From a virus: a stretch of DNA of 64,000 bases. The position numbers and the translations under genes were made by a program. Shown in pieces: positions 23,965 to 24,461 of the stretch. Location of the stretch: the UHGV virus genome UHGV-0037395; one strand, 5' to 3'. A model generated the notes under the pieces. It worked only from the letters and a program-made list of their open reading frames with translations. It ran no database searches and was not told the origin of the DNA. Position 1 is the first letter of the stretch. Each line of letters starts with the position of its first letter.

Positions 23965-24461
23965 AACAATACTCCTGTATTGGAAATGAAATAAGTTTTC
24001 TTTAGGACTATTCAGAAAGAATAGAACAACTGTTACTGTCAATTTCTCAACAAATTAATTGCAAATACTGAAGGGGGGTGGCAACTTCCCCTTTCACGCT
24101 ACACTGCCGCTTCACTATACCGCACAAATCCTTGAGGATGGCCGCTAAGCCAGATTTGCTCACCTAATGCTTCATGTACTAGCTCATACTAGATGTAGTA
24201 TACCTTACGTCATCACTTCTCAGAGTTTTTCACTCTTCCCGTCTCACTTCACAACCACCTCACACTAGGTTGCTTCGAGGCCTTACCAGGGTTCCTACGG
24301 GATGTAGATCGCTAAGTATTCTATTAACTATTTGTTTAAAAACTAACACGTAACAGTTAAAACAACCCTTAATGGGGCAGCCTAACTGTTCCGTATCGCG
24401 GATTGTAAACAAGAAAAATTAGCAAAATCAATTTTTACTAATGTCTCTCATTTATGGGAAT

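Follow-up and report, generated by a model that had tools for sequence, protein, structure and literature searches.

A predicted structured leader RNA in front of the D2 helicase gene of T5-like phages

The non-coding gap in front of the helicase gene D2 in the virus genome UHGV-0037395 is shown, by comparison with related phages, to encode what we predict to be a strand-specific structured RNA, the architecture of which is kept across the Markadamsvirinae while its sequence diverges. The window, i.e. the whole stretch of 64,000 nucleotides (nt) that was analysed, is by its sequence that of a T5-like phage, and the genes around the gap lie on its minus strand. The 700 bases at the gap have 99.4% identity to Escherichia phage vB_EcoS_MM-1 (a Tequintavirus, MM-1 below), and 441 records of T5-like phages match. 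The gap covers positions 23965-24499 (535 nt, minus strand), since an HNH endonuclease gene ends at 24500 on one side and D2 starts at 23964 on the other. An earlier note, made from the letters of the window alone, had placed a non-coding leader at 24043-24461; its non-coding character held and its extent proved to be larger. The automatic open reading frame (ORF) call for D2 (955 amino acids, aa) runs to a TTG at 24042. The true start is the GTG at 23964, and therefore 78 nt (23965-24042) of the called ORF belong to the leader. The annotated start in MM-1 maps onto this GTG. The ribosome binding site (RBS) and the start codon of D2 are kept in 32 related loci of IMG/VR, with ATG for GTG in the Klebsiella lineage, and an in-frame ATG further inside D2 is not conserved among these loci.

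According to our structural model the leader consists, from 5' to 3', of a hairpin (P1), a conserved box (CS1), a long stalk enclosing a core, a 3' hairpin, and an accessible RBS followed by the GTG start codon. The parts lie in the window as follows.

24462-24491, minus strand: sigma-70 early promoter, with the -35 box TTGCAA at 24486-24491, an 18-nt spacer and the -10 box TATAAT at 24462-24467
24410-24450, minus strand: P1, a two-tier 5' hairpin with the lower stem GAGAGA/UUUUCU and the upper stem UUAGUAAAA/UUUUGCUAA
24372-24396, minus strand: CS1, the conserved box AUACGGAACAGUUAGGCUGCCCCAU of 25 nt, located 3' of P1 and 5' of the stalk, with the small stem-loop CAG-UUAGG-CUG
24315-24359, minus strand: 5' strand of the closing stalk, pairing with 24027-24067
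24068-24314, minus strand: core domain of 247 nt, with 12 helices, 5 branch points and a G+C fraction of 0.49
24140-24151, minus strand: hairpin GGCUUAGCGGCC with the invariant loop UUAGCG, in the second three-way arm of the core
24071-24093, minus strand: hairpin H12 (helix 12, GGGG...CCCC) with the loop AAGUUGCCA
24027-24067, minus strand: 3' strand of the closing stalk, from both RNAalifold runs and from folding of the stalk
24008-24024, minus strand: 3' hairpin CUAUUC-UUUCU-GAAUAG between the stalk and the RBS, with no U-tract after it
23962-23976, minus strand: RBS AGGAG (23972-23976) and GTG start codon (23962-23964) of D2

The leader has a minimum free energy of -140 kcal/mol compared with -123.4 +/- 6.3 kcal/mol for shuffled sequences (z = -2.65), and none of 100 shuffles folded as well. 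We ran RNAalifold separately on 11 leaders of the A type, to which the window belongs, and on 13 leaders of the B type, which includes T5 itself and probably Epseptimavirus (by a flank-only blastn match). The two runs gave the same series of elements at nearly equal columns, with six compensatory pairs within each group. The order in both is P1, the stalk, an inner helix, a three-way-junction arm, a small hairpin, a second three-way arm with GGCUUAGCGGCC, the GGGG/CCCC hairpin and the 3' hairpin. The stalk was found independently by the two runs, pairing columns 105-149 with 396-438 in the A type and 105-145 with 395-435 in the B type. Across nine sequences from seven lineages (A, B, B', Klebsiella, KEY, L189 and L190) it has 30-42 base pairs (bp) and -30 to -39 kcal/mol, and its sequence is different in each. 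The earlier note had named a lack of covariation and conservation among T5-like relatives as part of what would speak against its proposal; covariation and conservation were both found.

The core was aligned with MAFFT using seven sequences from five non-B lineages (A, KEY, L189, L190 and Klebsiella), giving 55 consensus pairs, 35 of which have compensatory double changes. The covariance model R1, built from this alignment, has a single match in the window (24068-24314, minus strand, 262 bits, E 4e-86) and scores 206 bits in KEY, 199 in L189, 161 in L190 and 147 in Klebsiella; in 0.78 Mb of viral DNA, most of it unrelated, no match reaches E < 0.1. In the model-guided alignment 91.2% of the pair cells are paired, compared with 35-45% when the partners are slid by 1-3 columns, and 37 of the 55 pairs are doubly changed, compared with 8-14 in the slid controls. 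The covariation score is 0.40 against ~0.075 in the control, and none of 500 shuffles reaches the observed values, for a set of lineages that are few and related. A model-guided alignment leans toward its own structure, and the MAFFT-only alignment yields the same picture.

The helices have the orientation expected of the messenger RNA (mRNA). G-U pairs occupy 83 helix cells on the mRNA strand versus 9 on its complement, and the pairing would drop from 91% to 80% on the opposite strand. The folding energy of the sense strand is also lower, by 12-48 kcal/mol, in all eight lineages. We conclude from the G-U bias and the sense-strand folding energies that selection acts on the transcript from the conserved promoter. 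The purine-rich composition described in the earlier note is borne out, the RNA strand having a purine fraction of 0.55-0.59 (0.587 in the core) with G at 0.30 and C at 0.19 in the core. The GC-richness claimed for the region is only modest over the originally described span (0.413, compared with 0.392 for the whole window) and is strong in the 247-nt core (0.494).

Several parts of the leader keep their shape or their nucleotides across lineages. P1 was predicted in both RNAalifold runs, and a hairpin of like shape and other sequence is found in eight lineages. It is not a terminator, because the U-tract 3' of it is not conserved. No other primary sequence in the leader is as well conserved as CS1 (A, B, Klebsiella, KEY, L189 and L190), and in KEY its stem-loop has CGG...CCG for CAG...CUG, i.e. 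one compensatory pair. The length of the core is held at 243-251 nt in six lineages. The stem of the UUAGCG hairpin covaries (GGC/GCC, UGC/GCA, GAC/GUC), and GCUUAGCGGC or ACUUAGCGGU occurs at this hairpin in every lineage, B type and Providencia included. The GGGG...CCCC hairpin to which the earlier note had drawn attention is present as H12; three of its five pairs are changed on both sides, 93% of its cells are paired, and its loop AAGUUGCCA is kept in all lineages but the B type. The 3' hairpin was predicted in both RNAalifold runs, with hairpins of different sequence at the same place in Klebsiella, KEY, L189 and Providencia. The GAUCU and CAG of the innermost helix are universal across the lineages, as is the UUAGCG hairpin, while the B type has lost the junction motif GAGAAGUG and, from the GGGG/CCCC hairpin, the AGUUGCCA loop. 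These invariant features (CS1, GAUCU/CAG, GAGAAGUG, the UUAGCG loop and the AGUUGCCA loop) may mark binding sites. The distance from the stalk to the start codon is ~54-62 nt across lineages, and there is one copy of the element per genome, directly upstream of D2 in every locus examined.

Some further pairings were considered and dropped. The loops UGGUAAG (24282-24288) and AAGUUGCCA (24079-24087) could form a 6-bp loop-loop contact, UGGUAA/UUGCCA. This contact has 6 bp in the A type and in KEY (UUACUA) and ~3 bp in L189, L190 and Klebsiella, which is too weak to claim. A local alternative hairpin ACGGAACAGUUA/UAACUGUUACGU (repeat I5), a potential competitor of the stalk, was dropped as a switch since its conservation does not extend beyond the A and B types. 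The pairing of a 5' GCGAUAC with GUAUUGU near the RBS was predicted in group A only, with no covariation.

We propose, from the sequence comparison, to define the Markadamsvirinae D2-leader RNA as a new family by a 243-251-nt core matching R1, a long stalk, and a position between the promoter and D2; the window has all of these. A search of Rfam, one of the checks suggested at the outset, gave no known family. At the gathering threshold Rfam 15 finds only transfer RNAs (tRNAs) in the window, at 43.6-55.8 kb, and a scan of 23800-24700 at E<=10 gave noise of at most 19 bits against cut-offs of 36-94. There was also no match at E<=1 in six related loci (T5, KEY, Klebsiella, Providencia or Vibrio). 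The families covered include riboswitches, group I and II introns, RNase P, 6S, tmRNA, GOLLD, ROOL, OLE, HEARO and self-cleaving ribozymes. The segment ACAGAAC..CGGCU bears a likeness to CR-V of RNase P, and UGGCUUAG..GCCAUC to helix 43 of the 23S ribosomal RNA (rRNA), but neither likeness has the support of a model match. No description of a T5 leader RNA, origin or transcript map was found in the literature searched, and the annotations have none of the leader RNA. We file the element as a putative new RNA family whose general kind, that of structured phage leaders or large non-coding RNAs, is already known. GOLLD and ROOL are likewise large phage RNAs with many junctions, strong covariation and no known function. 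The leader RNA has no sequence or structure match to them, is smaller, and lies in an mRNA leader of a lytic enterobacterial model phage rather than beside tRNAs.

The gap has no open frame of at least 70 codons, and apart from the tRNA cluster no other stretch of at least 200 nt in the window is free of such frames, in agreement with the exclusion of protein-sized ORFs in the earlier note. MM-1 has annotated hypothetical proteins of 38 and 50 aa within the leader (window 24047-24163 and 24260-24412, minus strand). These small ORFs start with TTG or GTG, and their length, frame or stop shifts within group A. Counterparts were not found in the other lineages, and L027 has no ORF of at least 25 aa. 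The amino-acid changes in the small ORFs track the compensatory base changes. Small protein genes in the leader were rejected, as the ORFs are not conserved in frame, position or start, and the two small proteins of MM-1 are probably annotation artefacts. The same evidence bears on the idea that the gap is a decayed intron, a homing footprint or a set of small genes of the MM-1 type, to which we give almost no credence. The adjoining HNH gene and the MM-1 annotations speak for it. However, T5, S114 and oselot lack the HNH gene and all three have the leader, with the same architecture in T5 and many relatives lacking the gene; no intron model matches; and the leader sits upstream of an intact RBS and start codon. 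The intron or homing footprint offered in the earlier note is thus abandoned, as far as a comparison of sequences can decide.

It is surprising to find that the core is not shared by sequence among all these phages. A-type genomes align with the window throughout in blastn. For T5 and many others the alignment is confined to the flanks (window 24467-24322 and 24037-23935, 86-99% identity); between the A and B types flank identity is 88-99%. The ~305-nt centre is replaced in the T5-type genomes by unalignable sequence of equal length. In L029 a B-type centre is combined with an A-type 3' flank, and because of this mixture the centre is seen to behave as a recombination module. With its filters off, R1 matches the B-type cores over the full model at the expected coordinates, with only 11 bits (E ~0.02); 33-35 of the 55 R1 pairs are in register, and 17 of these are changed on both sides compared with the A type. 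The T5 core, unalignable by sequence and with a like predicted architecture, thus appears to be an exchangeable module. Near-identical flanks around unalignable cores, in the enterobacterial and the Vibrio branches, suggest unusual evolutionary pressure or frequent exchange.

A second kind of variation was seen next to P1. L006 (905-1503), L026 (907-1503) and L035 (904-1503) have a 97-nt insertion directly after P1, equivalent to ~24409 in the window and flanked by TTTTTCTT; their blastn matches fall into two pieces because of it. It is found with A-type and B-type cores, which suggests that it is a small module within the leader, either mobile or optional.

The early-type promoter reported in the earlier note is borne out by the comparison. 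Each of the eight lineages examined, among them the Tequintavirus A and B types, Klebsiella, Providencia, Erwinia KEY, L189 and L190, has a promoter of the form TTGC(A/C)N-N16-18-TATAAT at a distance of 477-622 nt before the D2 start. The T5 record annotates a promoter at the equivalent place and leaves the next 470 nt blank. From the promoter geometry, transcription would start at about 24455, and on sequence grounds the promoter is predicted to drive a ~490-nt 5' leader of the D2 mRNA. A terminator-like site was not predicted anywhere in 23500-25200, and no second promoter was seen between the core and D2. The conserved promoter, the lack of a predicted terminator, the conserved RBS and start codon and the steady spacing from stalk to start form a context that would suit a leader acting in cis.

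We favour, at a little short of an even chance, the reading that the structured leader RNA acts in cis on the expression of D2, through processing at the stalk and a factor-binding core. P1 begins a few nt from where the transcript is predicted to start, as is the case for known 5' hairpins that stabilise RNA, and would protect the primary 5' end of the D2 transcript. The stalk is probably a processing site of the RNase III type; its length and near continuity would suit a substrate of this enzyme, and its 30-42 pairs in seven lineages are more than the ~20 bp of flanking double-stranded RNA expected of an RNase III stalk. A cut in the stalk would free the core, and the remaining D2 mRNA would start ~55-60 nt before the start codon, headed by the 3' hairpin as a protective element. 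The core would be a folded binding module, the bound factor tuning the amount of stable, translatable D2 mRNA early in infection. The conserved size, invariant loops and free exchange of the core suggest that it binds a conserved factor. Given that lineages can exchange the core, its partner would probably come from the host and not be a phage protein that evolves along with it, and since the core swaps independently of the adjacent D2 sequence, a tight co-evolution with D2 is argued against.

Known RNase III stalks, i.e. those of the 16S and 23S rRNAs, the lambda N and pnp leaders and the early mRNA sites of T7, resemble the D2 leader in that distant segments form a near-continuous double-stranded RNA, here of 30-42 bp, that this RNA encloses a structured RNA, and that it belongs to an early phage transcript, a short way before a gene under regulation. 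The known phage sites differ in being simple hairpins with no conserved 247-nt multi-junction core, and cleavage in the D2 leader is our inference. Autoregulatory leaders, such as the 5' untranslated region of rne and the operators of T4 gene 32 and gene 43, similarly place a long structured leader before the gene of a nucleic-acid enzyme, and have no homology to the D2 leader.

Several points weigh against a cis-acting leader. Processing, factor binding and the effect on D2 expression are all inferred steps. A simple RNase III site or stabiliser would need no 247-nt core with invariant loops, and the RBS is not visibly sequestered, leaving no obvious on/off platform. The position beside D2 is weak evidence for action in cis because the synteny is conserved family-wide. 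In addition, the same architecture is assigned to T5 mainly from parallel independent predictions, because the B-type core matches R1 weakly.

The core could also be the end product. One such explanation, rather unlikely in our judgment, is that the leader is the precursor of a stable trans-acting non-coding RNA, with an excised core of ~250-330 nt serving as a scaffold, decoy or sponge for a host factor, and that D2 merely shares its promoter. The stalk would then be comparable to the processing stalks that flank 16S and 23S rRNA. A long stalk around a compact core of steady size with invariant loops is consistent with this, and so is the exchange of the core apart from its flanks, which agrees with an autonomous product whose target in the host is conserved. 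But such an RNA would have neither a terminator nor a promoter of its own, the element was never found away from D2, and its spacing to the D2 start is conserved.

The divergence of the sequence around a conserved fold, between conserved flanks, recalls RNA II of the ColE1 family, which brings replication into consideration. The leader could be an RNA-primed or R-loop replication origin, a structured pre-primer like ColE1 RNA II or T4 oriF and oriG, with the core as a replicon-specificity cassette; we regard this as unlikely. ColE1 RNA II, oriF and oriG share with the leader a strong promoter and several hundred nt of untranslated RNA beside replication functions, and RNA II also keeps its fold while its sequence diverges between conserved flanks. 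The promoter stands ~500 nt upstream of a fixed point, and the RNA strand is G-rich in the core. Selection on the RNA strand would also be compatible with an RNA-primed or R-loop origin. The element adjoins D2, which has been proposed as a replication initiator (PMC3632103). The origins of T5 are molecularly undefined, and T5 has the D10 helicase, which resembles UvsW of T4, the enzyme that unwinds origin R-loops (PMC5180179).

However, there is here no antisense RNA promoter, RNase H landmark or origin landmark, and the RNA runs into a translated gene. No plus-strand promoter-like site lies within 24027-24461, the nearest starting at 24499 and pointing away. There are no iterons or strong direct repeats, only short two-copy repeats that are 76-90% identical, and the conserved features are RNA helices containing G-U pairs, unlike those of an iteron-type origin. 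Known R-loop origins need no ornate multi-junction core. The strand bias of T5 recombitrons suggests a dominant unidirectional replication from one genome end (PMC10055335), and the literature on T5 origins is thus conflicting, with D2 as the initiator (PMC3632103) versus replication from a genome end (PMC10055335). In a broader form, which we hold just as doubtful as the origin itself, the stalk-enclosed core might be an exchangeable RNA module that folds by itself and specifies the initiation of T5 replication (an origin-defining or helicase-loading RNA, a ribozyme or a ribonucleoprotein scaffold), its alleles being swapped between co-infecting phages, with larger analogues in Vibrio phages.

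Two classical kinds of leader control were also weighed, and both seem very unlikely. In processive antitermination P1 and CS1 would modify RNA polymerase, like the nut RNAs of lambda or the put RNAs of HK022, for read-through of a long early operon. It would fit that a conserved promoter lies immediately before the element, that a long operon begins here, and that the CS1 hairpin has a conserved loop. But there is no convincing boxA/boxB consensus across the lineages, and the 250-nt core and its stalk would stay unexplained. We know of no antitermination system of the nut or put type for T5. A small-molecule riboswitch or attenuator switching D2 has similarly little chance. It would account for the size and structure of the leader and for the conserved nucleotides in its junctions and loops; however, there is no Rfam riboswitch match and no terminator, the two consensus folds leave the RBS unpaired or pair it inconsistently, and most of the nucleotides conserved in the A type are lost in the B type. 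Regarding the structured regulatory RNA or riboswitch-like attenuator put forward in the earlier note, the structure has thus been upheld by the compensatory helices, the G-U bias and the core length, and the attenuator has not, with no predicted terminator, no U-tract after the 3' hairpin and an RBS that is not masked consistently.

The start of T5 replication and the control of its early replication genes are poorly understood (PMC3632103, PMC5180179). T5 is a classical model phage, and the covariation-supported RNA of ~330 nt (stalk plus core) stands at the head of the D2 helicase operon, in a region that current annotations leave blank or fill with spurious small proteins. Our analysis gives exact coordinates, a testable secondary structure and two natural alleles (A here, B in T5) open to exchange experiments in E. 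coli. To our knowledge the large ornate phage RNAs GOLLD and ROOL still have no assigned function, and a T5 example would be far easier to dissect.

Leaders of possibly similar kind were observed in more distant phages. Vibrio Demerecviridae have ORF-poor gaps of 660-1100 nt before their D2 homologue.

L039, 828-1928: Vibrio leader with few or no ORFs
L040, 1160-1871: Vibrio leader with few or no ORFs
L207, 1501-2338: Vibrio leader with few or no ORFs
L208, 1483-2322: Vibrio leader with few or no ORFs

Close Vibrio relatives are 95-99% identical over the first ~160 nt and have the last ~30 nt in common, with a wholly different centre. The centres take several mutually unalignable forms, with the recurring motif GUUGAAAC..GAGAYACGUAG. 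For the leaders of Wyman and KIT04, which are 89% identical, 211 pairs are predicted; there are 9 compensatory changes, and no pair is broken. R1 finds neither the Providencia nor the Vibrio leaders, also with its filters off, and because of this we call the Vibrio leaders analogous, the homology of the Providencia and Vibrio leaders to the T5-type core being unproven. A scan of the collection with the pattern GATCT-N(145-172)-GCTTAGCGGC was dropped as unspecific, giving at least 120 mostly chance matches.

The genes on either side of the leader are the following.

21175-23964, minus strand: D2 helicase gene, 929 aa, downstream of the leader, with Pfam, PHROG and PDB matches
24500-24952, minus strand: HNH endonuclease gene (Pfam HNH_3), an optional insertion upstream of the promoter and outside the RNA element

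The sole Pfam match of the D2 product is Herpes_ori_bp (UL9-type, aa 394-533). The product spans the whole of PHROG 3712, the PDB has no relatives of it other than origin-binding proteins, and its homologues are annotated as replication origin binding protein in related records, the counterpart in T5 being T5.108. The downstream gene of the window is taken to be T5 gene D2 from the description in PMC3632103, in which the name T5.108 does not appear. D2 of T5 is a superfamily 2 helicase related to UL9, and amber mutants in it make no DNA (PMC3632103). Of the primase-polymerase/helicase named in the earlier note, only the helicase is supported, as a UL9-type enzyme; no primase-polymerase domain was detected in the D2 product in searches of Pfam and solved structures.

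The HNH gene is inserted between the DUF7415 gene and the D2 promoter (window 24454-24952). Genomes carrying it have a different promoter spacer and different first ~10 nt of the transcript. L029 (850-1010) has both promoter versions in tandem, and therefore the homing cassette seems to carry a copy of the promoter along. The upstream genes at 25095-27423 include one for a DUF7415 protein (Pfam), and at the equivalent positions MM-1 and T5 have two genes annotated as Sir2-like deacetylases dependent on nicotinamide adenine dinucleotide (NAD). An NAD-related RNA motif was not found in the leader in the Rfam scans. Elsewhere in the window, the plus-strand tRNA cluster at 43636-55802 has 23 (ARAGORN) to 25 (Rfam) genes, as expected for a T5-like phage, and several ORF-free gaps of 200-750 nt occur in and just before this cluster, from ~40.5 to 55.8 kb.

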